From contig PEWF01000088.1 of assembly GCA_002779595.1 (NCBI GenBank), forward strand, positions 7,669 through 31,764: a stretch of DNA of 24,096 nucleotides, in the 5' to 3' direction. A program made the translations under genes and the position numbers. Shown piece after piece: positions 1,502 to 17,749 of the stretch (within the stretch, counting starts at the first letter, position 1; every line of letters starts with the position of its first letter). Origin of the DNA: an archaeon CG07_land_8_20_14_0_80_38_8 (GTDB taxonomy: Archaea; Nanobdellota; Nanobdellia; Tiddalikarchaeales; Tiddalikarchaeaceae). The notes below the pieces were generated by a model that saw nothing but the letters and a program-made list of their open reading frames with translations, was not told the origin of the DNA and searched no databases.

Positions 1502-2565
1502 ATTCTCTCGCCTCTTAATTTTAAAAAATTATTAATCTGGTTCAATGATAATTCGTAAATATCCTCATTTCTAAAATTTTTATACCATTCAACAATCATA
1601 CTGACAGTTTCATCAAGAGTCAGGACAGGCTTCCACCCCAACTTTGAAACTGCTTTCATTGAATTAAGACATAAAAAATTCATTTCATGCACTCCCTTCC
1701 CATTCCCAGAATGCTTCCATGAACCTGAACTCCATTTTTCCAGAATCTTTTCAACCAAAGCCTTGACAGTGACAATATTATCATTTTCAGGGCCGAAATT
1801 CCACGCGCCTGCAAAATCAGCACTTGAAAATAATTTCATACCCAACAGTAAGTAGCCATTAAGAGGTTCAAGAACGTGCTGCCATGGGCGCACGGATTCC
1901 GGATTCCTCACAATAATCTCTTCATTATTAAGCAAAGCCCTCATGCAGTCAGGAACAATTCTGTCCTCGGCCCAGTCCCCCCCACCAATAACGTTCCCCG
2001 CGCGCACAGAAGCAACATTAACACCACTATTTCTGAAAAAAGAATCCCTGCAAGATGAAACAACAATCTCAGCGCATGCCTTGCTTGCACTGTAAGGGTC
2101 AAACCCTCCTAACTCGTCACTCTCACCATAACTCTTAGAATCATCCTTATTCTTATAACACTTGTCAGAAGTAATCATCACCGCAGACTTAACAGAATCA
2201 CTCTTTCTTATGCATTCCAGAACATTAACAGTGCCCATAATATTAGTCATGAAAGTTAGGGCAGGCTCATCATAAGATTTTCTTACTATAGGCTGGGCTG
2301 CAAGATGAAAAACAATTTCAGGATTATGCTGCTTAAAAATTTTGAACAATTCATCAAAATTATTCACATCACCCCTCACGTCAACAATTTTATCCGCAAG
2401 ATTTGCACGCTCAAACAAAGTATCAGCACCCAAGGAATCAATGGAATAACCAATCACTTTCGCACCCATCTTATTAAGCCATAAAGAAAGCCATGAACCC
2501 TTAAAACCAGTATGCCCAGAAACAAGAACTACTTTATTCCTGTAAAAATCATTAAAATCTTCCAT
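1498..2565 (-). CDS. rfbG: CDP-glucose 4,6-dehydratase
   Basis: GHTGFKGSWL, HLAAQPIVRKSY, TSDKCY, DPYSASK, RAGNVIGGGDWA, RPWQHVLEPL. Start moved to ATG 2565 (MEDF...), 5 nt after the rfbF stop; the ORF-track start at 2652 lies inside rfbF. Confidence 0.93.
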   Translation of the reverse strand: MEDFNDFYRNKVVLVSGHTGFKGSWLSLWLNKMGAKVIGYSIDSLGADTLFERANLADKIVDVRGDVNNFDELFKIFKQHNPEIVFHLAAQPIVRKSYDEPALTFMTNIMGTVNVLECIRKSDSVKSAVMITSDKCYKNKDDSKSYGESDELGGFDPYSASKACAEIVVSSCRDSFFRNSGVNVASVRAGNVIGGGDWAEDRIVPDCMRALLNNEEIIVRNPESVRPWQHVLEPLNGYLLLGMKLFSSADFAGAWNFGPENDNIVTVKALVEKILEKWSSGSWKHSGNGKGVHEMNFLCLNSMKAVSKLGWKPVLTLDETVSMIVEWYKNFRNEDIYELSLNQINNFLKLRGERI

Positions 2566-2570
2566 AATAA

Positions 2571-3362
2571 TTAATCCTCTAATTTTGTCCATGGAGCAGA
2601 TTCTTCCCAAATCCTGTTCAAATCCAGATAATCCTTGTAAGTATCCATGCACTTCCAGAAACCATTATGCTTGAAAATAACAAGATTCTTGTCCCTTGCC
2701 ACTTTTTCAAGAGGCTCTTTTTCAAGAATCAAAGAATCATCATCCCTTAAATAATCAAAAAATTTAGGCTCAAAAACGAAAAAACCGCCATTAATATAAC
2801 TCCCATCCACTTGAGGCTTTTCCTGAAAATCCATCACAATATTCTCATCCACATTTAATTCCCCGAACCTTGAAGAAGGCCTTACACCAGTTATTGTGGC
2901 AATCTTGCCATGACTCTTATGGAAATCATAAAGTTTGCGGAGATTAATATTCGCAACCCCGTCTCCGTAAGTAGCCATGAAAGTATTATTGCCAACATAC
3001 TTCTGCAATCTTTTAAGCCTGCCACCTGTCATAGTTTTCAAACCAGTATCAACAAGAGTAACTTTAATATCCTCCTTTAAACCTGACAAAAACTTAACTT
3101 TGTTGCAACTCAAATCAATCTCAACATCATTATTCAAAGCCAAATAATTAAGAAAATACTGCTTAATCATGTCGCCCTTGTAGCCCAAAGCGATTATGAA
3201 ATTATTAAAACCATAATGAGCATAAGTTTTCATAATATGCAGAATAATAGGAATTCCCCCAACAGACACCATTGGCTTCGGCTTATACTCTGTCTCCTCC
3301 CTTAATCTGGTGCCCATGCCTCCTGCAAATATGACAACCTTAACATCCTCATGCTTAGTCAT
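2571..3362 (-). CDS. rfbF: Glucose-1-phosphate cytidylyltransferase
   Basis: AGGMGTRLREETEYKPKPMV, LGYKGDMIKQYF, TMTGGRLKR, TYGDGV, INGGFFV, HNGFWKCMDT. Confidence 0.95.
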   Translation of the reverse strand: MTKHEDVKVVIFAGGMGTRLREETEYKPKPMVSVGGIPIILHIMKTYAHYGFNNFIIALGYKGDMIKQYFLNYLALNNDVEIDLSCNKVKFLSGLKEDIKVTLVDTGLKTMTGGRLKRLQKYVGNNTFMATYGDGVANINLRKLYDFHKSHGKIATITGVRPSSRFGELNVDENIVMDFQEKPQVDGSYINGGFFVFEPKFFDYLRDDDSLILEKEPLEKVARDKNLVIFKHNGFWKCMDTYKDYLDLNRIWEESAPWTKLED

Positions 3363-3364
3363 AC

Positions 3365-4063
3365 TTATTTATTAAAAAAGAATCTATATTTAAATATATT
3401 CTTTGCAAATTCCAGCGCTGTAAAGAAGTTAACGCTTGATTTTCCAGCCTTCCTGTCCTTGGATTTGACAGGAATCTCGCCAACAGAAAAGTTCATCCTC
3501 TTCGCTTTAATCATAATTTCAGCATCCAAAAACCAGTCCTTAGAATTTAAATCCATAGCTTTAAAAACAGATTTTTTCATAATTTTTGGGCAACCATTCA
3601 TATCCATAGAATCAATACCAAACAATAAATTCACGCCAATATTATAAAAAAATGAAGCAATACGCCTCAAAAAACCCTCAGTCCTGCTGACTCTCGCAAC
3701 CTTGCAAACATCCAAATCATCCCTTTTCAGCCTCTTAAAAACACTGATAATAATACTGAGAGGAATCTGGTTATCACCCCATAAAAAACCAACAAAATCA
3801 CCCCTACACTTGTGCAAACCCCTAAGCACGCCGTTGCCATAACCCTCATTCACTTTAACAACCACTTTCCGCACCCTCATATTCCTCTTTGCAAACTCAG
3901 AGATTAACTCCCCAGTCCTGTCAATTGAACCATTATCAACAGCAATAATTTCATAATCCAAATTATTAGCAGACAATAATTTTGCCAGCCTGCCCAATAA
4001 ACCAGCAACGTTCGCTTCCTCATTATACAAAGGTATTGCCAAAGACAATTCAGGATTACCCAT
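3365..4063 (-). CDS. GT2 glycosyltransferase, DPM1-like (polyprenol-phosphate sugar synthase type)
   Basis: IPLYNEE, VDNGSID, NEGYGNGV..G, NGCPK, WFLDAEI, R.AGKS. The DxD position reads WGD. Confidence 0.85.
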   Translation of the reverse strand: MGNPELSLAIPLYNEEANVAGLLGRLAKLLSANNLDYEIIAVDNGSIDRTGELISEFAKRNMRVRKVVVKVNEGYGNGVLRGLHKCRGDFVGFLWGDNQIPLSIIISVFKRLKRDDLDVCKVARVSRTEGFLRRIASFFYNIGVNLLFGIDSMDMNGCPKIMKKSVFKAMDLNSKDWFLDAEIMIKAKRMNFSVGEIPVKSKDRKAGKSSVNFFTALEFAKNIFKYRFFFNK

Positions 4064-4109
4064 TAAAATAATAATAATTTAAAACAATTAAAATACTTTT
4101 TCCTTATTA

Positions 4110-4118
4110 TTTTTAAAT
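4110..4118 (+). promoter_or_regulatory. TATA-like box for the GT4/GT-C/GT4/GT2 operon
   Basis: TTTTTAAAT, 22-30 nt upstream of ATG 4140. Confidence 0.45.
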
Positions 4119-4139
4119 CACATAAACATGAATAATAAC

Positions 4140-5240
4140 ATGAAAATACTGCACTTCTCATGGGACACGCCCATTCCTGGCATTGGCGGAAGCACGCATG
4201 AATGGAACATGGCAAAAGCGTTCAAAAAATTAGGGCACAAAGTCCGCCTAGTGTGCGAATGGGAATATGACAAAAAAATCAGCGAGGACTTGGAAGGAAT
4301 ACAAATCAGAAGAGTGCACTGGAGAACAGGATTCAGGCAGATAAACCCTTTAATACTTTGCGTGAAGGCAAAACTTAACGCGTTATACCACATAATATTT
4401 TTCTCGCCGAATATTATTTACGAAAGGTACAGGATAATGGGAGGATTCGGAGTCCTCATAGGAAAATTGTTCGGGAAGAAAACAATACTCGAAGTGAATG
4501 ACCCAACAATTGAAGCCCCCTACATTGAAGGCAGGATAGGATTGTTTACAAAAATAATTGCAGGCATTTGGGAGCGCCTAATATTCGCATGCAGCGATAA
4601 AATAATCACACATAATGAAGTAATGGCAGGAAGAGCAAACCAGAAAAAAGTCAGAATAATCACAAATGGAGTTGACACAAAAATTTTTAATCCCGAAAAA
4701 TACGCGCGCACAAAATGGGCTGATAAATTCGTATGCTTATTCATAGGCACGTTCGCGGAATGGCAGGGCACTGAAACAATACTAAAAGCAGCGGAATTAT
4801 TAAGAAAGAACAAAAAAATATTGTTCGCATTCGCAGGAAGCAAAGAAGACAATGAAGAAAACACTGAATATTTGGGAAGAATCAAATACTCTGAAATCCC
4901 CCAGTTAATCGCGAACAGTGACGTGTGCTTGTACACTCCTGACACTGAACACTACAAGCCAATGAAAAAATTAGGATTCTACTTCTCACCCCTTAAATTA
5001 TTCGAGTATATGAGCATGGCAAAGCCCGTAATAGTAAGCGATGCAGGAAACCTTAAAAAAATCGTAAAAAATGAAGTGAACGGGTACAGGATAGGAGAAA
5101 ATAATGGCGCAGAACTGGCAAGCAAGATTTTAAAACTTTACAGGAATAAAAAATTAAGAACAAGAATCGGCAAAAATAACCGCGAAGAATGCGAGAAAAA
5201 GTATTCATGGACTAAGATTGCAAAAAAGGTGCTGAAATGA
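4140..5240 (+). CDS. GT4 (GT-B) glycosyltransferase
   Basis: MKILH...GG...H N-terminus, ITNGVD, FIGTF..WQG, SPLKLFEYMSMAKPVI. ATG 4140 is preferred over 4128 because of spacing from the TATA-like box at 4110-4118. Confidence 0.9.
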   Translation: MKILHFSWDTPIPGIGGSTHEWNMAKAFKKLGHKVRLVCEWEYDKKISEDLEGIQIRRVHWRTGFRQINPLILCVKAKLNALYHIIFFSPNIIYERYRIMGGFGVLIGKLFGKKTILEVNDPTIEAPYIEGRIGLFTKIIAGIWERLIFACSDKIITHNEVMAGRANQKKVRIITNGVDTKIFNPEKYARTKWADKFVCLFIGTFAEWQGTETILKAAELLRKNKKILFAFAGSKEDNEENTEYLGRIKYSEIPQLIANSDVCLYTPDTEHYKPMKKLGFYFSPLKLFEYMSMAKPVIVSDAGNLKKIVKNEVNGYRIGENNGAELASKILKLYRNKKLRTRIGKNNREECEKKYSWTKIAKKVLK

Positions 5241-6802
5241 AAATAAAAATAAAATTTGACAATTACGCAATAATATTCCTCTTAATACTTATTGGTTCAA
5301 TCCTCATAAGATTCATTGATTTGAGCGCAGTGGGCTACGTTACTGACGAGCCGGTAATAATCACAGCAGGAATAAAACACTTCCTCAACAACCCATACCC
5401 TGTGTCGCTTTACGATATGGCAACGCCGGGAGGGCAGTGGCCAATAGGATTATCAGTCACACTATTATCAGGAAGGGATTTTTCAATAATAAAAGATTAC
5501 AGCATGATGGATTATGCAAGCATAGACCTGAACAATAATTTATTGAAAGGACTGGAATTCGCTGCGCGCCTTCCGGGCGCAATAATGGGAGTAATCAGCG
5601 GGATAATAGTATTCCTGCTCGTAAAGGAATTATACGGAAAAAAAGCAGGACTAATAAGTTATGCAATGTTCAGCTTCAGCCCAATACTTATTGACTACAG
5701 CAGGATTGCATTGCTGGAAATTTACCAGATAACATACATGCTGATTGCACTATATTTCCTGTACTTAAGCGTTGCAAGAAAAGAAAAAAATAACACTTAC
5801 TTAATACTCGCAGGAATATTCACAGGCTTGACTGCAGCAGCAAAACTAAACGGCTTAATGCTCATACCCTTATTCGCCTTGTTCACAATTGTATCGCAAT
5901 TCAAAATCAAAAAGAAAAATAATGAACTGCAAATTAACTTAATTGGCTTCCTGAAAAATGCAGGAATAATAATACTGACGAGCACAATAATCCTTCTTAT
6001 TGTTTTCAATTTCAACATAAACACCCCCCTCACAGTCTACAATTATTACAGCCAGACGAGCGGAGCTACAGGGTTGCAGTTCGTATTATTCCAATTAATT
6101 TATGACTCCTTATTCTTCTTCAACCCGTTAACGTGGATATTATTAATTGCAGCATTATACTTATTGATAAAAGATTTGGGAAAGATTGAAAAGAATGACT
6201 TATTCTGCCTATTCCTCATCTTATTAATAATTATCAGCGGATTCTTTGACACGCACAGCACCATTAAGAGAGGAATACAGTTCATGTGCTTAATATTCAT
6301 AATAATCAGCAAATTATTCTCCCAGAAAAAATTCATAATCAGCAGAAAATACTGGGCAATAATACCAATACTGATAATAATCATGAACTTAGGATTAGTA
6401 TTATACTACTTCCCGAATACAGGACTGGCAAAAAGCGTAATATGCACTAATCAGGAATGCCTTGACGCGCATAATACGCGCAATTATGACGCGAGAATAG
6501 TCGGGGAATACTTCAACAATTTAGACAATGCAGTCATTTATGATACTGTGAGCACAACAGGATTAACAGCATTCTACCTCAACAAGGAAGGAAATTATTA
6601 CTTAACTGGGGGGATTGCAAAACTGCAGCTGAACAATACGTGCCCAAATTACCAAATACTGAAAAATGTGGGATTCAATTACGTAATAGATAACGGAGGA
6701 TGCTTTGCAGAAATCAGCAAGAATCTGGAAAACTGCACGTACGAAAATATTTACATAAAAAATTATGAAATGGTTAAAATTTACAACATAACCAACTGCT
6801 AA
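5237..6802 (+). CDS. GT-C fold integral-membrane glycosyltransferase (PMT/ArnT-like) with Cys-rich extracellular C-terminal domain
   Basis: N-terminal TM helix followed by TDEP (acidic DE motif), ARLPGA, YSRIALLE, AAKLNG and many hydrophobic helices. ATGA overlap with the upstream GT4. Confidence 0.8.
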   Translation: MKIKIKFDNYAIIFLLILIGSILIRFIDLSAVGYVTDEPVIITAGIKHFLNNPYPVSLYDMATPGGQWPIGLSVTLLSGRDFSIIKDYSMMDYASIDLNNNLLKGLEFAARLPGAIMGVISGIIVFLLVKELYGKKAGLISYAMFSFSPILIDYSRIALLEIYQITYMLIALYFLYLSVARKEKNNTYLILAGIFTGLTAAAKLNGLMLIPLFALFTIVSQFKIKKKNNELQINLIGFLKNAGIIILTSTIILLIVFNFNINTPLTVYNYYSQTSGATGLQFVLFQLIYDSLFFFNPLTWILLIAALYLLIKDLGKIEKNDLFCLFLILLIIISGFFDTHSTIKRGIQFMCLIFIIISKLFSQKKFIISRKYWAIIPILIIIMNLGLVLYYFPNTGLAKSVICTNQECLDAHNTRNYDARIVGEYFNNLDNAVIYDTVSTTGLTAFYLNKEGNYYLTGGIAKLQLNNTCPNYQILKNVGFNYVIDNGGCFAEISKNLENCTYENIYIKNYEMVKIYNITNC

Positions 6803-6803
6803 T

Positions 6804-7886
6804 ATGATGAAAAAAATAAATTTTACAGCAAGAAATTATTACCCAGACTCCCCTGGAGGATGCGAAAAAGTATTCTACGAATTATACAAGCGCGCAAAAA
6901 AAGATTACAATATTAAAATAATCAGCAGTTACGAAAACAAGAAAAAATTCCCGAAAGGAAGCGATACTTTCAGAAAAATAAGAACAAAAAACAGCATAAT
7001 CAGGTACGCGTATTACGCGTGGAATATGAGCCTGAAATCAGTGAAGAACAATCCGGACTTGATTCACGCCAACAACATAGAATGCATCAGGATAAGCAAA
7101 AAAATACCATTCATATTAACAATCCACCACGTGGGGCACTTCCTGAACCCTGAAATCAGGAAGCAGGACTTTTTCACAAAAATTATGGGAAAAATAATTG
7201 TTATGCAGGCAAATAATGCAGACAAGGTAGTAACAGTCAGCAACTCCGTGAAAAAAGACTTGATTCTTATGGGCATAAAAAAAGACAAAATAATAGTAAT
7301 ACCAAACGGCATTGATTTAGAAATATTCAAACCCCTAAAGAAGAAAAATAAGAACAAAAAATTTGTAATCACGCACGCGTCAAGAATAAGCCCTGAAAAA
7401 GCGCAGCACTTCACCATTAATGCAGTAAAAAAACTGCCCGAAAGGATAAGAAAAAATATTGAACTGCGCATAATAGGCTACGTGAGCGACGAAGAATATT
7501 ACAATAAACTTGAAAAAAATAAAAGCGTAAAATATTATACAAATCTTTCGGAAAAAAATTATGCAGAAAAATTAAGGGAAAGTGACTTAATAGTGTTCCC
7601 GACAATGATGAGTGAAGGATTCGGATTAACAGTGCTGGAAGCGCTCGCATCAGGAGCGCCAATCATAGCCAGCAGCCAGGCAAGCATTAAAGAAGCAGGC
7701 GGAGAAATCTGCCAGTACTTCAAGCAGGGCAATGAAGAAGAATTCATCAAAAAAATAATAAAATTGTACGCAAACAGAAAATTAAGAATAAAATTGTCAA
7801 ATGAGGGAGTGGAATGGGTTAAAAAATATTCATGGAAAAAAGTGTATGATGATTACACAAAAATTTATGAGGAATTAATGCAATGA
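6804..7886 (+). CDS. GT4 (GT-B) glycosyltransferase
   Basis: GGCEKVFYEL, VTVSNSVK, IPNGID, SEGFGLTVLEALASGAP, YSW. Confidence 0.92.
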   Translation: MMKKINFTARNYYPDSPGGCEKVFYELYKRAKKDYNIKIISSYENKKKFPKGSDTFRKIRTKNSIIRYAYYAWNMSLKSVKNNPDLIHANNIECIRISKKIPFILTIHHVGHFLNPEIRKQDFFTKIMGKIIVMQANNADKVVTVSNSVKKDLILMGIKKDKIIVIPNGIDLEIFKPLKKKNKNKKFVITHASRISPEKAQHFTINAVKKLPERIRKNIELRIIGYVSDEEYYNKLEKNKSVKYYTNLSEKNYAEKLRESDLIVFPTMMSEGFGLTVLEALASGAPIIASSQASIKEAGGEICQYFKQGNEEEFIKKIIKLYANRKLRIKLSNEGVEWVKKYSWKKVYDDYTKIYEELMQ

Positions 7887-8797
7887 AAATCAGCATAATA
7901 ATACCAACGCACGGCAGGCCGGGAGTGTTCAGCCAGTGCCTGAAATCAATAAATTTACTGAAAAAAGAATTGGACAAATTCAAACCATACGAAATCATAA
8001 TAATCAACAACAATAATGAAAAATTAAGGAACGAAACCAGCAAAGCGTGCAGAGAATACGATTTGCCAATAAAAGAAATAGTCATGAAGAAAGCAGCCGG
8101 AAGCGTGAGAGCGCGCAACGCAGGCATTAAAAAAGCAAAAGGCGACGTGTTAATCTTCTTTGATGATGACACAATAATACTTAAAAATTATTTTACTAAT
8201 TTAATGAAGCACTATAAGGACAAAAAAGTGGGCGCAGTTGGAGGAAGCGAAATAAAGCAAAAGAATACTCTGCTGCATAAATTATTCTTCAAATTCCACA
8301 AACCCGGAAGCATTACGTGGAGCGGAGAAATAATAAGCAATTTCTCGCCAGATTACAACAAGCCAATAATTGTGAAGCACTTACACGGCTCAAATTTCAG
8401 CATCTGCAAACGAGTAATTGATGAAATCGGATTAATGGACGAATTAATGATAGGCCATTACAGGGATGAGACAGAATTTATTTACAGAGTTTACAGGAAA
8501 GGATACACAATTATTTTCGAGCCAGAAGCAGAAGTAATACACACAGAATCAAATATTGGAGGAAGCATAAGTCCCTCAAAGAAGAAAGAATGGGCTTACT
8601 GGTACCACAGGAATACGAGTTATTTCTTCTTCAAACAATTATACACAGGCAATCCATTGCAGTTAATCGCATACATTGCAAGGGAATTAATAACATCAAT
8701 AATCAGGGCAATCATTTACAAAAACTCATACTACTTGTTTGAAATGAAAGCAGTCAAAGAAGGACATGATTTGGCTCTTAAACGAATTTCTTATTAA
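7883..8797 (+). CDS. GT2 glycosyltransferase
   Basis: ISIIIPTHGR, ARNAGI..AKGDVLIFFDDD, HLHGSNFS, RDETEF.YR. ATGA overlap with the upstream gene. Confidence 0.9.
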   Translation: MKISIIIPTHGRPGVFSQCLKSINLLKKELDKFKPYEIIIINNNNEKLRNETSKACREYDLPIKEIVMKKAAGSVRARNAGIKKAKGDVLIFFDDDTIILKNYFTNLMKHYKDKKVGAVGGSEIKQKNTLLHKLFFKFHKPGSITWSGEIISNFSPDYNKPIIVKHLHGSNFSICKRVIDEIGLMDELMIGHYRDETEFIYRVYRKGYTIIFEPEAEVIHTESNIGGSISPSKKKEWAYWYHRNTSYFFFKQLYTGNPLQLIAYIARELITSIIRAIIYKNSYYLFEMKAVKEGHDLALKRISY

Positions 8798-9161
8798 AAG
8801 TTACGTTCTTGTCAAAAAAGTAGCCGAAAAATAATACAAGAAAAGTAGTAGCAGCCCTGCTGATTAAACCATTAAATAATAATATTTCAACCAAAAAATA
8901 CATCAATACCAGCGTGAAAACGTAGGACAAACAAACCATTAACGCGTAAAAACCCAATTGCCTGAACTTCCTTGACTTATCCCTGAAAGTGAATCTCTTG
9001 TTCAAGCCGAATTTGACAAGAGCGCCGCTAATGAAAGCAAAAGAAACCGCGTACTGGTAATACAAGCCGGATAAACTGAACAAAACGAAAAAAACAATCC
9101 AGTCAGTCAAGGTGGCAATTACTCCAACTCCAACATAAGAAAAAAACTGCTTCTTAACCAT
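8778..9161 (-). CDS. gtrA: GtrA-family small membrane protein (putative lipid-linked sugar flippase)
   Basis: 127 aa with 4 hydrophobic segments. QFFSY..VG..AT..D, F.LNKRFTFR and C-terminal K..TF are GtrA patterns. Confidence 0.88.
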   Translation of the reverse strand: MVKKQFFSYVGVGVIATLTDWIVFFVLFSLSGLYYQYAVSFAFISGALVKFGLNKRFTFRDKSRKFRQLGFYALMVCLSYVFTLVLMYFLVEILLFNGLISRAATTFLVLFFGYFFDKNVTFNKKFV

Positions 9162-9185
9162 GAAAAATAATAATCAGTCAATGCT

Positions 9186-9848
9186 TTAAATTTTTAATCT
9201 GAGCATGACTAAATCATAAAGCATGCCAATTGGCGTGAAAATGTTAATCTTGCTCTCCCCTTTGCGCCTCACTGTCTGCACAATAGTATAAGTTGCAATC
9301 CTGAAACCTGACTTTCTGACTTTGTAAATAAGCTCAACATCAAAAACCCAGCCCTTATTCTTCAAAATAATATTCTTAACGCACTCCGTTCTGAACACTT
9401 TCAAGCCTGACTGCGTATCAAACGCTATTCCGAACAATAAGAACACGAAAAAATTAAACAATAACCCTCCAATCCGCCTGTACCACTTCGTCTTCCTCAC
9501 CCTCACACTCTGGACAAAATCATAAAATTTCAGCTTCTTAACCATTGGCAGAATATACTTCGGATGATACTCCATGTCAGCATCAATAATAACACTAATA
9601 CTCGCCTTTAATTCCTTCAAACCCCTCATCACAGCATTCCCCTTTCCCTTCTCACCCCTTCTCTTAATTATTAAAGAATTAATATGCAGTGCTTTGCACT
9701 CCTTCCTTGCAATAACAGCAGTGTTATCACTTGAATCATCCACGAGAATCAGCCTGAAATTATTATTCCTTAATTCTTTTTTCAAAGTTTTAAGAAACAA
9801 AGCAATACTACCCTCCTCATTCAGGCACGGAACAACCACGTCAATCAT
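9186..9848 (-). CDS. GT2 glycosyltransferase, DPM1/GtrB-like
   Basis: VVVPCLNEE, VDDSSD, KGKGNAV..G, IIDADMEY.P, DTQSGLK, GWVFDVEL, ESKI. Confidence 0.88.
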   Translation of the reverse strand: MIDVVVPCLNEEGSIALFLKTLKKELRNNNFRLILVDDSSDNTAVIARKECKALHINSLIIKRRGEKGKGNAVMRGLKELKASISVIIDADMEYHPKYILPMVKKLKFYDFVQSVRVRKTKWYRRIGGLLFNFFVFLLFGIAFDTQSGLKVFRTECVKNIILKNKGWVFDVELIYKVRKSGFRIATYTIVQTVRRKGESKINIFTPIGMLYDLVMLRLKI

Positions 9849-9884
9849 AAAAATATTAATAAAAAGGTATGTGATTTAAAGATT
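9849..9884. promoter_or_regulatory. 36-bp divergent intergenic region with crossed TATA-like boxes
   Basis: TTAATAAA at 9856-9863 (+) is 22-29 nt before ATG 9885. TTTAAAT at 9880-9874 (-) is 26-32 nt before ATG 9848. Confidence 0.4.
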
Positions 9885-10760
9885 ATGATTTCAATAATAA
9901 TCACTGCCTGCAGGGAAGAAAAAACAATAATCAAATGCATCACGTCAATAACTTCCCAGCGCATAAAAGAAGACTATGAATTATTAGTAATCGCGCCTGA
10001 CGAAGCCACGCTAAAAGCAGCCAAAAAAGCCTGTAAGAAAGTTAAAACAATAAAAGACAAAGGATTAGGCAAATGGGACGCCTTAAATCAGGGTTTCAGG
10101 AAAGCCAAAGGCAGAATACTCATATTATTGGACGGGGACACATATTTGCAAAACAGCAGTATAAACTCCTTAATCAACGCCTTTAATGAAGAAGATACCG
10201 GAATTGTGAGCGGCAGAGTCATAAGCCAGAATGCAAAGAATAACATGCTCGGATACTGGTCGCACCTGCTCGTAAACGCGGCGCACAAAGAACGCGAAAG
10301 AAGGGACCGGAAGAAGGAATTCATCATATGCACAGGATACCTGCTAGGAATAAGAGCCAATATTATCAAGAAACTGCCTGAAAACCTGTTAAGCGAGGAT
10401 GCTTACATGAGCCATTACGTATGGAGCAAAGGGTATGACACGCGGTACGCTGCTGAAGCAAAAGTAATCGTGAAATACCCCTCAAATTTCAAGGACTGGA
10501 TAAAGCAGAAAAGAAGAAGCACTGGGGGATACCACCAGTTAAAAAAATATTTCAAAAAAAACCCAAGAATGAGAAGCTTCACAATAGAAGCAGTAAAAGG
10601 GCCTTTTTACGCATTAAGTTATGCAAAGAATTTGAAAGAATTAATATGGAGCTTAATATTATTCCCCGCAAGACTATACTTGTGGATATTAACATTTTAT
10701 GACAAAGTTTCGCGCAAGAGTTTCAGGCAGGTATGGCAGAGAGTGGAAAGCACAAAATAA
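9885..10760 (+). CDS. GT2 glycosyltransferase, cellulose/chitin-synthase-like core
   Basis: GKWDALN, LLDGD, CTGYL, LSED (xED), KQKRRS at the QxxRW position, and a C-terminal hydrophobic segment. Confidence 0.82.
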   Translation: MISIIITACREEKTIIKCITSITSQRIKEDYELLVIAPDEATLKAAKKACKKVKTIKDKGLGKWDALNQGFRKAKGRILILLDGDTYLQNSSINSLINAFNEEDTGIVSGRVISQNAKNNMLGYWSHLLVNAAHKERERRDRKKEFIICTGYLLGIRANIIKKLPENLLSEDAYMSHYVWSKGYDTRYAAEAKVIVKYPSNFKDWIKQKRRSTGGYHQLKKYFKKNPRMRSFTIEAVKGPFYALSYAKNLKELIWSLILFPARLYLWILTFYDKVSRKSFRQVWQRVESTK

Positions 10761-10762
10761 AT

Positions 10763-11065
10763 TCACTTCTTATTCTTAATGTTTAAAAAGTTCACAATAA
10801 TAAAAACAATAACCATTAACAGGACGAAATTAATCAACGCGGAAAGAAAAGAGCCTATTCTTAATTCAACAACCCCAATTGAAAGAACTATATTCTCCCA
10901 TTGCCCGTAAGAATTCAAAGGAAGAATTACAGGCATAACAATATCATTAACGAATGATTTAATCAAATCATTAACAGCAATGCCGCTGATAAAAGCAATA
11001 CCCAGACTGACAATTTTATATTCTTTCAGGAAATCCATAAAACTTTTAAAAAAATTAAACACCAT
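10763..11065 (-). CDS. mscL: Large-conductance mechanosensitive channel (short form)
   Basis: F..FL.EY.IVSLGIAFISG...NDLIKSFVNDIVMP and IGSFLSALINF, with 2 TM helices. GAGGT SD-like site upstream. Confidence 0.85.
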   Translation of the reverse strand: MVFNFFKSFMDFLKEYKIVSLGIAFISGIAVNDLIKSFVNDIVMPVILPLNSYGQWENIVLSIGVVELRIGSFLSALINFVLLMVIVFIIVNFLNIKNKK

Positions 11066-11072
11066 AACAACC

Positions 11073-12092
11073 TCATATTAATACAAACAAAACCCATGGA
11101 ATAATGCTCATGATTAACTGCAAACCAGTCAATCTCATAACAATGCCCTTCTCAGTAGCACCCTTCCTGCCCATCACGAAATGAGTCAATGAATACACCT
11201 TATCATACTTATTCCTAACCACACCATTAGCGCCTAATTTGCCCAGACTCACCGCGAAATAACCCAAATCCTTCAAAGAGCGGAGTTTCAAAATCCATTC
11301 AATAATGAACAAAGTCATAGTCACTAACGCGAATTTCTCCATATTGGCAAGAATAGTGCACACTGCAACAATGCCTCCCAACGCGTAAGTCAGACTATCC
11401 CCGGGCAAAATTTTCGCAGGCACAAAATTATAATACAAAAACGCCAGCAAAGCAACAGTGGTTGACAATAAAATAATCGCGGGAATACTCTGCCCCAAAT
11501 ACAACGCGTATAAACCAAGACTGAAAGTGTAAATAATTCCCATTCCTGATTCAGCACCATTAAAACCCCCCAACAAGTTAACCATGTTAGCGCATCCCAC
11601 AATAGCAACAGGAACCACTAATAAAGGATACAATAAGCCAAGATTAACAATGCCAATCAAAGGAATGCTCATAGTAGTAGTTCCTGCATTAATAACCATT
11701 AAAGGAATAACCGCGGGCAGAGTAAACAGCGGCTTCTGCCACTGCTTCAAACCCTTCTTGTAAGAGAAACCCTCATAAGTGCGGGGTTTGCTGTTCAAAT
11801 CATCAAAAAAACCAGCCATGGTAATAATAAGAATTGAAGTAATCGCGCTGAACAATTCAATCATGTTAGCAGAATCATGATAAACAAAAGTTTCCAGAGC
11901 AATGTAAACAAACAAACCCATCAAGACGCCGCTCATAACTGAAATGCCGCCGCTGCTCGCAATTAATGACTTATTCTTCTTATGAACATCAGACGTTACA
12001 ACACCAATGCTTCTGAAGAAATTGATAAAGCCAGGAGTGATAAAATAAGTAACCATGAAACTGACAGTCAAGGTTATCAAAGAAACAATCAT
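11073..12092 (-). CDS. aglH: UDP-GlcNAc:dolichyl-phosphate GlcNAc-1-phosphate transferase (GPT/MraY-like family)
   Basis: DVHK...GG, GFFDDL, NMVNLLGGFNGAE, YN..PAKILPGDS, FIIE..LK.R, multi-TM. ATG 12092 overlaps the aglB TAA (TAATG). Confidence 0.85.
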   Translation of the reverse strand: MIVSLITLTVSFMVTYFITPGFINFFRSIGVVTSDVHKKNKSLIASSGGISVMSGVLMGLFVYIALETFVYHDSANMIELFSAITSILIITMAGFFDDLNSKPRTYEGFSYKKGLKQWQKPLFTLPAVIPLMVINAGTTTMSIPLIGIVNLGLLYPLLVVPVAIVGCANMVNLLGGFNGAESGMGIIYTFSLGLYALYLGQSIPAIILLSTTVALLAFLYYNFVPAKILPGDSLTYALGGIVAVCTILANMEKFALVTMTLFIIEWILKLRSLKDLGYFAVSLGKLGANGVVRNKYDKVYSLTHFVMGRKGATEKGIVMRLTGLQLIMSIIPWVLFVLI

Positions 12093-14713
12093 TACCAAAA
12101 TACGCCCCCAGGCACTTCCCAGTAACTCTTCAAAGGCTCATCAAGAATGAAAGGACTAAGTTCAGTATAATTAATCGCGTAAATCTTAATATCAGTCAAA
12201 CTCTGGCTAAGCATACCCTGAATAGTCAAAGGCCGGCTATTATCATATGCCAAACTAAAACCCGGAACCTTAACATCCAATAAGTACAAGTAAGTGAACA
12301 AATTATCACTCGCATTCTTCGTGATTAAAAGAATGCCGTCATCAAATAATAACGGGCATGCAGGAATGCCGTCATCACGAGTCCAATAACACTGCTCACC
12401 CTTAACGCAGTAGCAGTTGAAAGGAATAATCTCACCCTGATTAGGATAATACTGGTTAACAATAACCCCGTAAGGCTGCATTAACGGACTCGTGCCGTTA
12501 TAAGGATAAATAATGTTGTAAATGTAAGTGGAGCCGCTCTGGAAAATAAAATTATTATAAACAAAAGATTCCTGCAGAGGGAAAGCGCCGTAATACGAAT
12601 TAAACACTAAAAGAGTCGGGTACTCTGTCGCGTTAACCAAATTAACACTATTATCCACTTCCTGATAATAATAACCAGGCACATAATACGTTGGGCGCTT
12701 GCCAATCCTGCCCATCTGCACGTACTTCAAAACGTCATCATCAATAATCAAGAAATAATCAGGCTTTCCGAAAGTTCCTGCAAGAACAGTGGCGGGCTCA
12801 GTCATGTTAAAAAAACCATTATCATAAATTTGGGAAGCAAACAAGTACCTTCCAATCATGTGGTCCAGGTTAACATCAAAATTTCCGCCGTCAAGATTCG
12901 TAGTCCTGTTGCCCATAGTCTGAACCCAGTAGCCATAATCCCACCAGTGAGTGAACACGCTGTCAACAGCAGTATTACCCTGAACCCAAATCATGGCTTC
13001 ATCCCACTCACCAGTAAAGCTTGAATACAAGTTGCTGTTAGCAGCAATTGCAATATTCAAATTGTAAATAAACAATACACCAAAAATTGAATAAGTAATC
13101 ACGGCAGCAAAAACTCCTGACTCAACAAAACCCTTAATCCACTTATTGAATTTCTTAAAAAAATAACCTGACAAAATCATTGCAGGAGGGCACACTGCAA
13201 AAATGATGCGCACGCCACCCCTCGCGCCCACAGCAGAAACGAAAAACCAGAAAAACATGAACAAATAATCAACCCTTATGCTCTTGAAGTTCTCAAACTT
13301 TTCCTGGTTCTTAACCACGAAATAAGCAAGGTAAACTGCGAATGCGAACAAAATAATGTAATGCAACGGCACGCCGAGGACTGACTGGCCGAAAAAAGCA
13401 GTAATGCCCGCGTATTCAGAAGCAGTGCTGAACCTCGAAAAAATAAACAAGATAAGAGTTAAAATATACGTTGAAGTAATGATTAATTTCTGCTTCGGGA
13501 ATTTTTTGAACATTTCAAAAAAGAGTATGAAAGAGCCGAGAATCATCGTGAAAAAAGTGAAATTCATAGGACTCCACCAGTCAACATGCCCGCTCGGGTC
13601 ATAAAAGTAAGGCGCCTGATTCTCATTAACGCTCATAGCGAACGCGTCAGAACCGAAAGGATTGCTCATACGCTCAAAAGCAAAATTCAAAAGATAAGAA
13701 TAAAAACCAAAACCCGGATAAACCAAGCTGACAAGCACCAATAACCCTATTCCCACAATCATTGAATAAAAATGCTCAGACAACTTCTTAGGCTTGTATT
13801 TTTTAATATATTTTTTAATCCTCGGATACAATTCAAACCTGTAAAGGTTCAGAACCAAAGCAACAGGGAAATAAATGAACATGTAACTCTTGAAAATGTC
13901 AACAAAATTGCCGTACCTCCCAACTAAAAAAGTAACACTAATAATTGACAAAACTATTACAGCAAAAACAATTGAATCATTCCTCTTGCTGATTCCCAAA
14001 AATATTGAAACAAGGAATAATGCGCCGAGCGCGATGAAAGTGAAATTAACGCCGCCCCATGAAAGTACTGAACCAATCACGCACAATCCTGCAGGAATAG
14101 AATAGAATAATTTCTTATGCCAGTCATCATTCTTTAACGCCTTAATAATGAAATAAATAAGTGCGAACAAGAACATGACAGCAACTGACTCCTTCTCAGT
14201 GAAGCCCGCGCTCGTCCTGTAAAGGAAGCCATTAACAACAGCCAATAATAATGATGAAGAGAATGCAACAGTGTTGCCGAAAATATCCCTAACGAACAGG
14301 AAAAAGAAAATCATCCCAATACAAGTCACTATTACAGGATAAATAATAGCAGCATTGACAATGTCAACATCAGCGAAAAAGTTCAGGAAATAATAAACTG
14401 CAGCAGTCGCGTAAGAAGGCATTAACAATTCCCTTGAAGTGTCAAAACCTGAAGGGTAATACCTCATAGTATCATTCAACGGCACACCACCCCATTCAAC
14501 AATATCCCTTGCATAGCGCAGGAAAACATGAGGGTCCAATGCCAACAGGAATTCACCGTTAAGATTAGGCAAATCCCTTGTCCTGACATAAGCAGTCAGG
14601 CTGATAATGAGAACCAAGCCTAAAATAATCAGCAACGTCTTATTCTTTTTCAATTTTGAGAAAAGTTCATCAAAATCAACTTCAAAACTCTCCTCATTTT
14701 CTTCCTTAACCAT
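12092..14713 (-). CDS. aglB: Oligosaccharyltransferase AglB (STT3 family)
   Basis: LALDP, RT.AGFTEKE, SVNENQAP, R.....PP, HWWDYGYW, NRTTNLDGGN, DDVLK (DxxK), plus a multi-TM N-terminal region. Confidence 0.96.
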   Translation of the reverse strand: MVKEENEESFEVDFDELFSKLKKNKTLLIILGLVLIISLTAYVRTRDLPNLNGEFLLALDPHVFLRYARDIVEWGGVPLNDTMRYYPSGFDTSRELLMPSYATAAVYYFLNFFADVDIVNAAIIYPVIVTCIGMIFFFLFVRDIFGNTVAFSSSLLLAVVNGFLYRTSAGFTEKESVAVMFLFALIYFIIKALKNDDWHKKLFYSIPAGLCVIGSVLSWGGVNFTFIALGALFLVSIFLGISKRNDSIVFAVIVLSIISVTFLVGRYGNFVDIFKSYMFIYFPVALVLNLYRFELYPRIKKYIKKYKPKKLSEHFYSMIVGIGLLVLVSLVYPGFGFYSYLLNFAFERMSNPFGSDAFAMSVNENQAPYFYDPSGHVDWWSPMNFTFFTMILGSFILFFEMFKKFPKQKLIITSTYILTLILFIFSRFSTASEYAGITAFFGQSVLGVPLHYIILFAFAVYLAYFVVKNQEKFENFKSIRVDYLFMFFWFFVSAVGARGGVRIIFAVCPPAMILSGYFFKKFNKWIKGFVESGVFAAVITYSIFGVLFIYNLNIAIAANSNLYSSFTGEWDEAMIWVQGNTAVDSVFTHWWDYGYWVQTMGNRTTNLDGGNFDVNLDHMIGRYLFASQIYDNGFFNMTEPATVLAGTFGKPDYFLIIDDDVLKYVQMGRIGKRPTYYVPGYYYQEVDNSVNLVNATEYPTLLVFNSYYGAFPLQESFVYNNFIFQSGSTYIYNIIYPYNGTSPLMQPYGVIVNQYYPNQGEIIPFNCYCVKGEQCYWTRDDGIPACPLLFDDGILLITKNASDNLFTYLYLLDVKVPGFSLAYDNSRPLTIQGMLSQSLTDIKIYAINYTELSPFILDEPLKSYWEVPGGVFW

Positions 14714-14715
14714 GA

Positions 14716-15552
14716 TTAAATATTCACTTCAATAAAAGCAGCGATTAATAAAAATATAATCCCACCAATTATTAAATATGAAGTATTCTGAAAGAGTTTA
14801 AAAAAATTCCTGCTCTTATAATGCCTCCTCACAACTGCCGCGCTGATAATGCCTCCAGCCAGACTTGCCAGGAAATAAGCCATTAATTCAAAAATGCCGT
14901 GAAACATGTACTGTCCCAAACCATAAGGCAGTGAAGAAAAATAAACAATAATTCCTGAAAAGTAATCACCAGCAACCACTTTAACCAACTGCTCCCTTAT
15001 AAACAAACCAACAGCAGCTCCAAGAACGCTCGCATTCCACGCAAGGATTAAAACTGCGCCAGCGCCGTAAATGAAAGAAAACAATAAGCAGAAAAATAAC
15101 ACCCTTAAATTGTTCATGAAAATTAACTCAAACAAGCCGTTAAAGACAACGTTGCCGGTAACTAATGACTGCATTGACAAAATATTACCAACCTGCTCCG
15201 AGAAAACACTCTGCAAAGCCCAGTCAGGAAGGAAAGAAAACCACAAAGAGAAAGAAACAGTGTATCCAAGAAATAAGAAGAAGAAAACGCTGATTAAATC
15301 CAATTGCTCATGAAAAACCTGCTCCTTTTTGTCAATTAAACGAAGATTAAGATTCTCCTCATCCTTTAATAAATTCACAAACAAAGGAGTAGTCGCAATC
15401 GCTGTCAAAAAAATTGAAAAAATGCTGGCCTGAGAAGGGAACACTATCAAGGACAATAATATGGCAATGCTCGAATAAATCAAACCCATAAAGAATAAAG
15501 ACCAGCTATTCCTCTTCGCCTCAACAGGGGTTAAAAAACTTTCAAGCACCAA
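14716..15552 (-). CDS. Stage II sporulation protein M (SpoIIM/DUF95)-like multi-pass membrane protein
   Basis: IFMNNLRVL...LFSF.YGAGA..ILAWNASVLG and HG.FEL.AY.LA..AGG motifs. Probable TTG start (MVLES...). Confidence 0.78.
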   Translation of the reverse strand: MVLESFLTPVEAKRNSWSLFFMGLIYSSIAILLSLIVFPSQASIFSIFLTAIATTPLFVNLLKDEENLNLRLIDKKEQVFHEQLDLISVFFFLFLGYTVSFSLWFSFLPDWALQSVFSEQVGNILSMQSLVTGNVVFNGLFELIFMNNLRVLFFCLLFSFIYGAGAVLILAWNASVLGAAVGLFIREQLVKVVAGDYFSGIIVYFSSLPYGLGQYMFHGIFELMAYFLASLAGGIISAAVVRRHYKSRNFFKLFQNTSYLIIGGIIFLLIAAFIEVNI

Positions 15553-15559
15553 ACCATAA

Positions 15560-16618
15560 TCATCTCAAATAAATTTTCCTGCTCTTGCCGCGGAAACCGC
15601 TCCCAGTATCCTCTGTTCTTACAAATTCCAATGTTTCAAGACGATTTAAGTATTTCCTAAAAGTCCTCATACTAACACCTTTATGATTCTCCAAAAACTT
15701 GTCATACAATTCGCCGGTAATAGCACCATTCAAGGTTTTCAGTAATTCAAGAATAACCTGCTCGTGCTCCTCTAACTTCTCAGCCTTCTCCTTAAACAAT
15801 ACGTTCTTAATGCTGCTCACTGCTTCGTCCACGTGCTTCCCAAACACTTTACGGCTTGAATCATTCTCAGCAATCCTCCCGGATTTCAACAATAAAGAAA
15901 TGCCCAGCCTCAAATCATTATGCTTAAAAGAGTAATCCACTACTTTGCTGAACGCTTCATCAGTGAAAACTTCCGGATAAAACGCGTGATTAACCCTCTG
16001 CATTAAAATTTTGCTGACATCATCCCTTGAATAAGGCTTAAAATCCAGATTCTCCACATTCAGCCTTGACAACAATCGCGAGTCAACCTTTTTAAGAAAA
16101 TCAGAATAATTACTGATAAACAACAAACCAATCTTCCTGCCAAAACCCTCAATTAAAGGATAAATAAAATCCAGACTCCTTGCCTTGTCAATCTCGTCAA
16201 AAGCAATAACAATACCCTTCTTATTGTCAATCTTCTTCGTAATGCCCCTGATAATCTCGTCAGTGCTCACACCCTTCCTCGGATAAGGCACGCCGAAAAA
16301 CTTGCTTAACTCCACAAAAACGCTGTGATAAGTCGAGCACTTCCAATTATTAATATAGCAGGGAATAATCTCCTCGCTCGTATTCTTCAATTCATTAAAA
16401 ACGAAGCGCACGCTCAAAGTCTTGCCAATGCCAGGCTTGCCAGTGATGAAAATATTAGCCGGACGCTTCTCAGCAAATAAAGGCTTAATTCCTGAAACAA
16501 TATTCTTAATCTCATCCTCGCGGTTAGTCACCGCAGGAGGCACGTAATCAAAATCTAACACGCTCTCATCAGTAAAAAGTGTCTGCTCGCTACCAAGCAT
16601 ATCATCAAATAAAGACAT
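15560..16618 (-). CDS. cdc6: Orc1/Cdc6 replication initiator (AAA+ with winged helix)
   Basis: LDFDYVP...RE.EI, Walker A GKPGIGKT, YINNW, Walker B IAFDEID, LLSRL, F.PYS..D...IL..R, D.R..I.LL, and C-terminal wH ending RGKSR. Confidence 0.93.
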   Translation of the reverse strand: MSLFDDMLGSEQTLFTDESVLDFDYVPPAVTNREDEIKNIVSGIKPLFAEKRPANIFITGKPGIGKTLSVRFVFNELKNTSEEIIPCYINNWKCSTYHSVFVELSKFFGVPYPRKGVSTDEIIRGITKKIDNKKGIVIAFDEIDKARSLDFIYPLIEGFGRKIGLLFISNYSDFLKKVDSRLLSRLNVENLDFKPYSRDDVSKILMQRVNHAFYPEVFTDEAFSKVVDYSFKHNDLRLGISLLLKSGRIAENDSSRKVFGKHVDEAVSSIKNVLFKEKAEKLEEHEQVILELLKTLNGAITGELYDKFLENHKGVSMRTFRKYLNRLETLEFVRTEDTGSGFRGKSRKIYLR

Positions 16619-16622
16619 ACTA

Positions 16623-16660
16623 TTATAGGAACTTTTAACTATTTAAAAAAATTCCTGTAA
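16623..16660. repeat. Imperfect inverted repeat TTATAGGAA-N20-TTCCTGTAA upstream of cdc6
   Basis: Arms 16623-16631 and 16652-16660 match 8/9 as reverse complements and bracket the AT-rich TATA-like spacer. Confidence 0.55.
16640..16650 (-). promoter_or_regulatory. TATA-like box for cdc6 (likely leaderless mRNA)
   Basis: Minus strand TTTTTTAAATA, 22-32 nt upstream of ATG 16618. Confidence 0.5.
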
Positions 16661-16680
16661 TTAATCACTAATATCAAAAC

Positions 16681-16690
16681 TTTAAAAATA
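16681..16690 (+). promoter_or_regulatory. TATA-like box for the PspC-domain gene
   Basis: TTTAAAAATA, 26-35 nt upstream of ATG 16716. Confidence 0.45.
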
Positions 16691-16715
16691 ATCAGGCAAT
16701 CAATAATATAATACA

Positions 16716-17126
16716 ATGGCAGAAAGAAAAAAGGACAAAACAGCAAAAGATTACTACAAAAAAAATCCTAACACCGTAATACGCGCAGTGAAAGCAGGAG
16801 AATTATCACTAGTGGAGCTGGAAAAATTATTAAAAAATGAAGCGCAAAGGAAACGCAAAAGGAAAACAGTAATGAAAGCAATAAATGACAAAATCACAGA
16901 TTATGAATCAAGGATTAAAAAAATCAGGGCAGAACCAATAATAAAAGTAAAACACGAAAAACCAGAAAATACTGACAATAAAATTCTTGGAGGAGTAAGC
17001 CAGGCAGTCAGCGACGCAACAGGCATAAACGTAGAAGTGATAAGAATATTATTCCTCGTGTCATTCGTGTTCTTAATAGGAATACCAGTATACGCATTAT
17101 TGTCATTATTCATAAAAGAGAATTAG
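16716..17126 (+). CDS. PspC-domain membrane protein with an extra N-terminal basic helical domain
   Basis: C-terminal NKILGGVSQAVSDATGINVEVIRILF...IGIPVYALL matches the PspC pattern (D.KI.GVC.G.A.Y.GID...VR..F...Y). It is preceded by about 85 aa of Lys/Arg-rich helical sequence. Confidence 0.72.
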   Translation: MAERKKDKTAKDYYKKNPNTVIRAVKAGELSLVELEKLLKNEAQRKRKRKTVMKAINDKITDYESRIKKIRAEPIIKVKHEKPENTDNKILGGVSQAVSDATGINVEVIRILFLVSFVFLIGIPVYALLSLFIKEN

Positions 17127-17749
17127 AAACCGTGCTCGCCCTTCAAAGGCACAAACCTGAACTCGCCCAAATCACTCTTAACAACGCCCTTCCTTGTCTT
17201 TTTCAATTTAATCATGGTTTGGATAAAATCGCCGACAGGAATAACCATTACTCCGCCAATCCTTAACTGGTAAACCAAAGGCTCGGGAATTTTAGGAGCA
17301 GCAGCAGTGACAATAATTTTGTCAAAAGGCGCGCCCTCAGGACAGCCTTTGCTCCCGTCACCAAGCAAAACAGTGACATTAGAATAATTTTTCAGGTTCT
17401 TCCGCGCAAACAAAAATAACCCCTTCAGAAATTCAACTGAGAAAACTCTTCCCTCTTTGCCAACGCACTCGCTCAATATTGCTGCCTGGTAACCGCTCCC
17501 AGCGCCCACTTCCAATACCTTCTCACCCTTTCTGGGGCTTAATGCCTGGGTCATTATTGCAACAGTGGTGGGCTGGCTAATAGTCTGCCCCTCCCCAATG
17601 TGCAGTGGAGCATCATCATACGCGTAATCATGCAAATATTCAGGGATGAAATTTTTTCTGTCAACTTTCCTGAAAGCATTAAGAATATTCTTAGTAGTAA
17701 TAATTTTGTCTTTTTTCCAGTAATTAATCAAAGCCATCTTCCTGCTCAT
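17123..17749 (-). CDS. pcm: Protein-L-isoaspartate O-methyltransferase
   Basis: AF.KVDR..F, AY.D.PL.IGEGQTISQP, VLEVGAGSGYQAA, GDG..G, APFDKI.VTAAA, RFVPL. Confidence 0.95.
   Translation of the reverse strand: MSRKMALINYWKKDKIITTKNILNAFRKVDRKNFIPEYLHDYAYDDAPLHIGEGQTISQPTTVAIMTQALSPRKGEKVLEVGAGSGYQAAILSECVGKEGRVFSVEFLKGLFLFARKNLKNYSNVTVLLGDGSKGCPEGAPFDKIIVTAAAPKIPEPLVYQLRIGGVMVIPVGDFIQTMIKLKKTRKGVVKSDLGEFRFVPLKGEHGF

Follow-up and report, generated by a model that had tools for sequence, protein, structure and literature searches.

An Orc1/Cdc6 paralog at the head of a putative N-glycosylation operon in a member of the Nanoarchaeia

Why should a gene of the archaeal replication machinery head a row of genes for protein glycosylation? 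This question is raised by a stretch of 24,096 nucleotides (nt), analyzed at its full length and here called the window, from the archaeon CG07_land_8_20_14_0_80_38_8 (contig PEWF01000088.1, positions 7,669 to 31,764). Within it, cdc6, which encodes a protein of the Orc1/Cdc6 family, is followed on the same strand by genes for a SpoIIM-like membrane protein, the oligosaccharyltransferase AglB, the glycosyltransferase family 4 (GT4) enzyme AglH and the channel MscL. A preliminary description of this DNA, made from the sequence alone, proposed that one transcript ties replication initiation to envelope growth and osmotic safety. The reading we favor, at a probability of about 60%, is that the five genes form a single transcription unit, in which the linkage of cdc6 to its neighbors reflects inherited gene order and shared expression and not a required functional coupling.

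The cluster consists of five consecutive open reading frames (ORFs), which are listed below in the order of transcription.

15560-16618, minus strand: short Orc1/Cdc6 paralog, 352 amino acids (aa), first gene (assigned by TIGR02928, Pfam, structure alignment and tree)
14716-15552, minus strand: SpoIIM-like polytopic membrane protein, 278 aa, TTG start (PF01944, arCOG01994)
12092-14713, minus strand: AglB/STT3 oligosaccharyltransferase, 873 aa (Pfam STT3, PF02516, and motifs)
11073-12092, minus strand: AglH/GPT-type GT4 polyprenyl-phosphate sugar-1-phosphate transferase, predicted, 339 aa (PF00953); its ATG lies inside TAATG
10763-11065, minus strand: short MscL-type channel, 100 aa, last gene (Pfam MscL)

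Read from the cdc6 end to the mscL end, the junctions measure 7, 2, -1 (the TAATG overlap) and 7 nt; these lengths and the common direction of the five genes were the same on re-reading as when first described. The source genome is an 810-kb assembly of 122 contigs, approximately 91% complete, and the stretch was present in 24 groundwater or aquifer DNA runs, while none of the listed runs was of RNA. Independently assembled contigs of other samples covered positions 9500-17200, including both mscL junctions, with zero differences, and the arrangement is thus real DNA and not a chimera.

Family assignments of the preliminary description were upheld by Pfam and NCBIfam scores. AglB matched PF02516 with 73.6 bits (2.9e-20); besides the STT3 membrane domain, it has the catalytic motif WWDYG (residue 590) and a motif of the DK type, DVLKYVQM (residue 660). 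The GT4 enzyme matched PF00953 (Glycos_transf_4) with 105 bits (4.6e-30) and was far under the cut-offs of the NCBIfam MraY models; the name AglH is given by family only, and UDP-GlcNAc and dolichyl phosphate are its predicted substrates. The SpoIIM-like protein matched PF01944 with 41.6 bits (cut-off 26.9).

Whether these genes share a transcript was assessed from their spacing and promoters. Spacing statistics were obtained from a simple ORF-based gene call of the source genome, in which 45% of the gaps between same-strand neighbors were 10 nt or shorter and six of 657 runs included at least five genes at such spacing. The cluster is thus among the more tightly packed runs without standing out, and tight spacing alone says little in this genome. 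For promoters, a B recognition element (BRE)/TATA matrix, AA..TTTWWAAA, was derived from this genome by expectation maximization. TATA-like hexamers before first genes, surveyed where the upstream spacer is 50 nt or longer, were sharply concentrated at -35 to -28 from the start codon, implying that most transcripts of this genome have little or no leader. The cdc6 promoter scored 11.8 at the modal position of -35 (98th percentile of first genes). Scores of the SpoIIM-like gene (-3.1), aglH (-0.7) and mscL (-1.0) were in the lowest quarter of internal genes. The promoter and the limits of the unit are as follows.

16640-16653, minus strand: predicted BRE/TATA promoter from which the cluster would be transcribed, AATTTTTTTAAATA; it begins at -35 relative to the cdc6 ATG (genome-trained position weight matrix)
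16627-16656, minus strand: inverted repeat AGGAA...TTCCT bracketing the TATA box (alignment of eight family members)
16716-17126, plus strand: divergent PspC-domain gene with its own BRE/TATA, the 5' limit of the unit
9885-10760, plus strand: convergent glycosyltransferase family 2 (GT2) gene, bounding the unit on its 3' side; 2 nt separate its stop from that of mscL

The spacer between cdc6 and the PspC-domain gene is 97 nt long and filled by the two divergent promoters. We compared the locus with relatives by whole-genome searches of 40 genomes in 23 families and ORF maps of 35 loci. In four other genomes of the family, the cdc6 promoter scored 7.2-11.1, always at -35, and downstream genes scored 4.2 or less. 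Where the SpoIIM-like gene was itself the first gene, its promoter scored 4.3-11.0, mostly at -33 to -40. This contrast matches what a shared promoter predicts. In addition, stop and start codons overlap or nearly touch at the cluster junctions of several relatives, and the TAATG and ATGA overlaps suggest translational coupling. On these grounds we infer that the five genes are co-transcribed. The single strong BRE/TATA element 35 nt before the cdc6 start codon would drive the unit, giving an mRNA with little or no leader that would terminate against the convergent glycosyltransferase gene. The sole promoter originally placed upstream of cdc6 was thus recovered by the genome-trained model, with some doubt left by a site upstream of aglB.

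That site, which scored 6.6 at -45, off the modal position, may be a weak internal promoter, and it is one of several observations that weigh against a single transcript. In one other family (f17; G024, L051), the SpoIIM-like gene has a promoter of 11.8 bits at -34, inside the 3' end of cdc6; adjacency is thus not always one transcript, and the same gene order may be transcribed differently between families. Genome-wide, a Shine-Dalgarno 5-mer preceded internal genes more often (33%) than first genes (6%), and within the cluster a clear match was present at mscL only (GAGGT at -9). Finally, tracts of at least six T occur 13 times on the sense strand of the unit, including one at 22 nt past the cdc6 stop, and any of these could terminate some transcripts. 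As marks of termination, oligo-T tracts were judged uninformative, given their number in the unit and the finding that only 18% of terminal genes in the genome have one within 60 nt.

The alternative that survives best builds on these points. It holds that the genes are packed by genome compaction only and that they are expressed from individual promoters hidden within the coding sequences before them, so that no five-gene mRNA exists. The general frequency of short gaps, the aglB site, the f17 promoter inside cdc6 and the many oligo-T runs are all as it would have them. However, it leaves unexplained the very low promoter scores of the three other internal genes, the contrast between the window's family and genomes in which the SpoIIM-like gene comes first, and the overlapping stop and start codons. 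We regard separate transcription as unlikely.

If the genes are co-transcribed, which Cdc6 heads the unit? Two Orc1/Cdc6 paralogs per genome were detected in the 40 relatives, a short one of approximately 350 aa, orthologous to the window gene at 34-76% identity, and a long one of approximately 410 aa, only approximately 30% identical to it. Their clades were separated with 100/99 support. A placement by phylogeny, which had been suggested at the outset, could thus be made, although the clade to which the window gene belongs is not that of the main initiator. In the source genome, all that is left of the long paralog is its C-terminal part, 134 residues long, where a contig of 1357 nt ends (C4:956-1357, L044), and this fragment rules out a single Cdc6 in that genome.

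The window protein is a member of the Orc1/Cdc6 family by TIGR02928 (221.2 bits, cut-off 181.3), and the Pfam domains Cdc6_lid and AAA were matched. It contains a Walker A motif, GKPGIGKT, at residue 60 and a Walker B motif, VIAFDE, at residue 137. Residues G60, G63, G65, K66, T67, D141, E142, N170, R181, R185, R208 and R237 were invariant in 21 orthologs, most of which also conserve the wing motif GFRGxSRK. The Pfam domain Cdc6_C scored 19.9 bits, under the cut-off of 25.1, but the region still aligns to the winged helix of Sulfolobus Orc1-1 (2qby_A). Conservation of the ATPase and wing motifs suggests that the short Cdc6 still functions as an ATPase that binds DNA, in whatever role.

Over its full length, the window protein aligns to 2qby_A (3e-33, 119 bits) and matched NF001625 with 155 bits; the long paralog of a same-genus genome scored 338 bits (5e-100) and 491 bits, respectively, and matched Pfam Cdc6_C at 9e-29. 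When a profile of the short clade was compared with solved structures, the highest scores were obtained for Orc1-1 (235 and 199 bits), followed by Orc1-3 (131) and Orc1-2-type proteins (106 and 94). Judged from these scores, the short paralog looks like a divergent duplicate of Orc1-1 and not like an ortholog of crenarchaeal Orc1-2.

Origin sequences were associated with the other paralog. Origin recognition box (ORB) or mini-ORB repeats occurred just upstream of the long paralog in seven of the eight loci of relatives examined. The ORB elements (TTCCAnnnGAAAnnnAGGGG) are opposed in orientation and flank an AT-rich spacer (e.g., L036:2650-2960, L037:2650-2745, L041 and L042), which, beside the long Orc1-1, is likely the oriC of these relatives. 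No ORB or mini-ORB match was found anywhere in the 24 kb of the window, nor next to the short paralog at 35 loci (186 kb in total). An origin beside the short cdc6 was therefore ruled out, the intergenic region being only 97 nt long. The canonical initiator and origin therefore lie elsewhere, and the origin region of the source genome is unassembled. The label "replication initiator", given to the window gene in the preliminary description, thus does not suit it, as this gene is the second, divergent and faster-evolving paralog and the canonical Orc1-1 with ORB repeats is found elsewhere.

What is then conserved in this cluster? The SpoIIM-like gene is directly followed by aglB in 25 of the 34 relatives that have it, representing 13 families (loci including L046-L071 and L077). 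AglH comes directly after AglB in 20 relatives, and in one more (G038) it is located beside AglB but upstream. Stop and start codons of the three genes often overlap. The conserved core is the trio SpoIIM-like, AglB and AglH, and it is class-wide. The functional core of the unit would be this N-glycosylation trio, in which the GT4 enzyme would load the first sugar phosphate onto the lipid carrier and AglB would transfer the finished glycan to protein, with the SpoIIM-like membrane protein as the constant companion of both.

Linkage of cdc6 to the trio is narrower. The order cdc6, SpoIIM-like, aglB, aglH was kept at the assessable junctions in all eight family relatives, and the short cdc6 was directly upstream of the SpoIIM-like gene in the window's family and in f12, f15, f17, f19 and f20, to which f24 and f29 were added when the sample was widened to 150 genomes of the Nanoarchaeia. 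Altogether, this junction was present in 23 genomes, the window's included, of approximately 83 with the short paralog, and in every sampled member of the eight families. The four-gene order first described is thus not unique to this genome, recurring in the eight family relatives and in seven further families; the part of that order that did not stand is mscL.

In families without the cdc6 junction, the trio is preceded divergently by archaeal FEN-1 (TIGR03674, 460 bits). We found three states: FEN1 divergent from short cdc6 with the SpoIIM-like gene downstream (f12, f17 and f19), FEN1 divergent from the SpoIIM-like gene without cdc6 (f2, f6, f9, f13 and nearly f8), and FEN1 divergent from short cdc6 without the trio (f4). 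Their simplest common ancestor would be an order in which FEN1 was divergent from short cdc6, SpoIIM-like, AglB and AglH, later broken at different points. The preliminary description had set this cdc6 apart from those of model archaea, which usually lie by origins or replication genes; with FEN1 as the divergent neighbor of the short cdc6 in several families, this contrast fails. Adjacency of cdc6 and the SpoIIM-like gene needs at least two changes on the short-paralog tree, whose backbone is unresolved, so that the number of gains and losses is not fixed. In the reading we favor, the operon would be headed by the second, faster-evolving Orc1/Cdc6 paralog of the Nanoarchaeia, with ATPase and winged helix apparently intact and no ORB-type origin adjoining, and its position would be a remnant of the old order, retained by eight sampled families and broken in most others. 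A point that counts against mere inheritance is that the junction persists in eight families at 35-45% Cdc6 identity, which may exceed inertia.

The same block also carries genes for PCMT, a TtuA-like PP-loop protein, DUF357 and an MscS-type helix protein; the presence of such unrelated genes points to a general conserved neighborhood and not to a purpose-built module. On the other side of FEN1 (L051, L057, L058, L066-L070 and L072), we observed the conserved MscS-type helix protein (PF05552), the TtuA-like PP-loop ATPase and DUF357. A mechanosensitive-type gene therefore recurs near the block in other families, compared with mscL at its far end here, which may be coincidence.

The window MscL itself matched Pfam with 52.3 bits (cut-off 27.4) but was under the cut-off of all NCBIfam equivalogs (e.g., 36.5 versus 71 for TIGR00220). 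With 100 aa and two hydrophobic stretches (three overlapping hydropathy peaks), it appears to be a short and divergent member of the family. No relative with an mscL gene has it in the cluster, and the copy of the same-genus genome is on another contig. In that genome (G001), AglH directly abuts the convergent GT2 gene, and the window mscL sits exactly between these two genes. Judged by these gene orders, mscL is a recent addition at the 3' end, specific to the species lineage, and it would have joined the unit in this lineage only. Its proposed membership in a functional module was not borne out.

These data bear directly on the module originally proposed, a selected unit that would link the expression of an initiator to the capacity for N-glycosylation and to protection from osmotic stress, keeping envelope growth in step with replication. 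Retention of the junction in all sampled members of eight families, the single strong promoter at the same position across the family, and stops and starts that overlap or nearly touch in several relatives are what such selection would produce. However, the cdc6 concerned is a non-origin paralog, the short paralog is separate from the SpoIIM-like gene in approximately 60 of the approximately 83 genomes in which it occurs, mscL is never linked elsewhere, the block holds unrelated genes, and the SpoIIM-like gene of f17 has a promoter of its own. In addition, family f16 has the SpoIIM-like gene and AglB but no short Cdc6, and the trio thus does not need this protein. Coupling of replication initiation to envelope growth is therefore not shown, as the gene is not the initiator linked to the origin, most families lack the link and have the glycosylation trio without cdc6, and the osmotic part is limited to one species. 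We consider a selected module of this kind improbable.

A further possibility is raised by the region upstream of cdc6. The 45 nt before the ATG (16619-16663) were near-invariant across eight family genomes, and sequences farther upstream could not be aligned. Within this block, the TATA box is flanked by the inverted repeat AGGAA-N20-TTCCT, which may be an operator or else no more than the BRE together with a promoter-proximal element. The repeat was only partly kept in other families, two of which (f2 and f9) share TGTCCAGTRAT just before the ATG instead. No regulon was found for it, as only three promoter-placed copies were present in the whole genome; the two other copies of the GGAA...TATA...TTCC arrangement (G000, C22:13785-13811 and C102:15046-15071) precede genes encoding 203 and 83 aa. 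It may be that the short Cdc6 is a non-initiator DNA-binding ATPase whose expression, or whose binding at this repeat, sets the level of the SpoIIM-like protein, AglB and AglH; we hold this, too, to be rather doubtful. If true, the old gene order would be a selected link from chromosome status to cell-surface glycosylation in tiny symbionts.

The weakest alternative, that the short Orc1/Cdc6 is a dedicated regulator like Orc1-2 of Sulfolobales and controls its own promoter and the downstream glycosylation genes, has the precedent of an Orc1 paralog that regulates transcription globally instead of initiating replication (PMC6061795, PMC9738581), the lack of an origin beside the gene, the family-conserved repeat bracketing the TATA box and a DNA-binding function apparently under selection in its favor, but it is very unlikely, as the short clade scores nearer to Orc1-1 than to Orc1-2-type proteins, the GGAA before the TATA box may be a plain BRE, the repeat is partly kept outside the family and rarely placed at promoters, and binding is only putative.

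The preferred reading, a transcription unit with a glycosylation core and an inherited cdc6 at its head, draws attention to the SpoIIM-like protein. Archaeal SpoIIM homologs were described in a comparative study as mostly stand-alone, not tied to AglB, with a predicted role in membrane remodeling, and SpoIID and SpoIIP homologs were reported to be absent from archaea (PMC5898192). The function of SpoIIM in Bacillus is thus not transferable. Given its gene neighborhood, the SpoIIM-like protein is a candidate for a new or missing component of N-glycosylation, for example in the handling of lipid-linked glycans.

Other glycosylation genes surround the cluster. Positions 647-12098 of the window form a large glycosylation island with genes for an RmlD-like reductase, a dehydratase, a nucleotidyltransferase, five GT2 and two glycosyltransferase family 1 (GT1) enzymes, a PMT_2-type transferase and GtrA. 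The GT2 genes beside AglH are kept in the family, throughout which a GT2 gene is the convergent neighbor of AglH. Separately, AglB orthologs of two f13 genomes (G020:C17:57921-60350 and G035:C2:56978-59404) each contain one in-frame TGA, which may reflect a sequencing error, a pseudogene or recoding.

Several consequences follow for work on this group, for which we know of no cultured genetic system. Tight spacing in a compact genome is a weak sign of functional coupling unless it is checked in relatives. That Nanoarchaeia have two paralogs, only the long one origin-linked, is relevant wherever origins are to be located or complete genomes rotated; a survey of 208 complete genomes of the phylum used ORC1/Cdc6 only as a rotation marker and a single-copy core gene. 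In 13 families, the SpoIIM-like protein accompanies AglB and the GT4 enzyme almost without exception, and it thereby offers a concrete candidate for a step still missing from archaeal N-glycosylation. Should the linkage to cdc6 be functional, it would represent a rare Orc1/Cdc6 paralog wired to envelope biogenesis. In the literature, we found no description of an Orc1/Cdc6 paralog heading an agl cluster, nor of a constant SpoIIM-like partner. All component families were already known; what appears to be new is the Cdc6-headed order and the constant SpoIIM-like partner.

How does this locus compare with known systems? Archaeal agl clusters around aglB are known from Haloferax volcanii and Methanococcus. 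As in these clusters, AglB is grouped here with the initiating GT4-type transferase, many glycosyltransferases and sugar-nucleotide enzymes. In contrast to them, this cluster has an Orc1/Cdc6 paralog as its first gene, and the SpoIIM-like membrane protein is always part of it. Orc1-1/Cdc6-1 adjoins an oriC with ORB repeats in Sulfolobus (oriC1), Aeropyrum and Pyrococcus. The window protein is of the same family, with the same domain order and an end-to-end alignment with Sulfolobus Orc1-1; however, its gene is not accompanied by ORB repeats or a long AT-rich spacer, and in relatives the long paralog has that role. Of the two core paralogs, Orc1-1 is the one typically linked to an origin, and the second, the Orc1-2 cluster, is not (Raymann et al. 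2014, PMC3914693), and Orc1-2 of Sulfolobus is a transcription regulator of the DNA-damage response and not an initiator (PMC6061795). Like such non-origin paralogs, the window Cdc6 is a second, faster-evolving copy that does not coincide with an origin, although the short clade of Nanoarchaeia is nearer to Orc1-1 (235 bits) than to Orc1-2-type proteins (94-106 bits) by profile score, and any regulatory role is only putative. Finally, the cluster resembles mixed-function operons of reduced genomes in that unrelated genes are separated by a few bases and apparently served by one promoter, but its cdc6-SpoIIM junction spans families at 35-45% Cdc6 identity, which goes beyond a recent accident of compaction.

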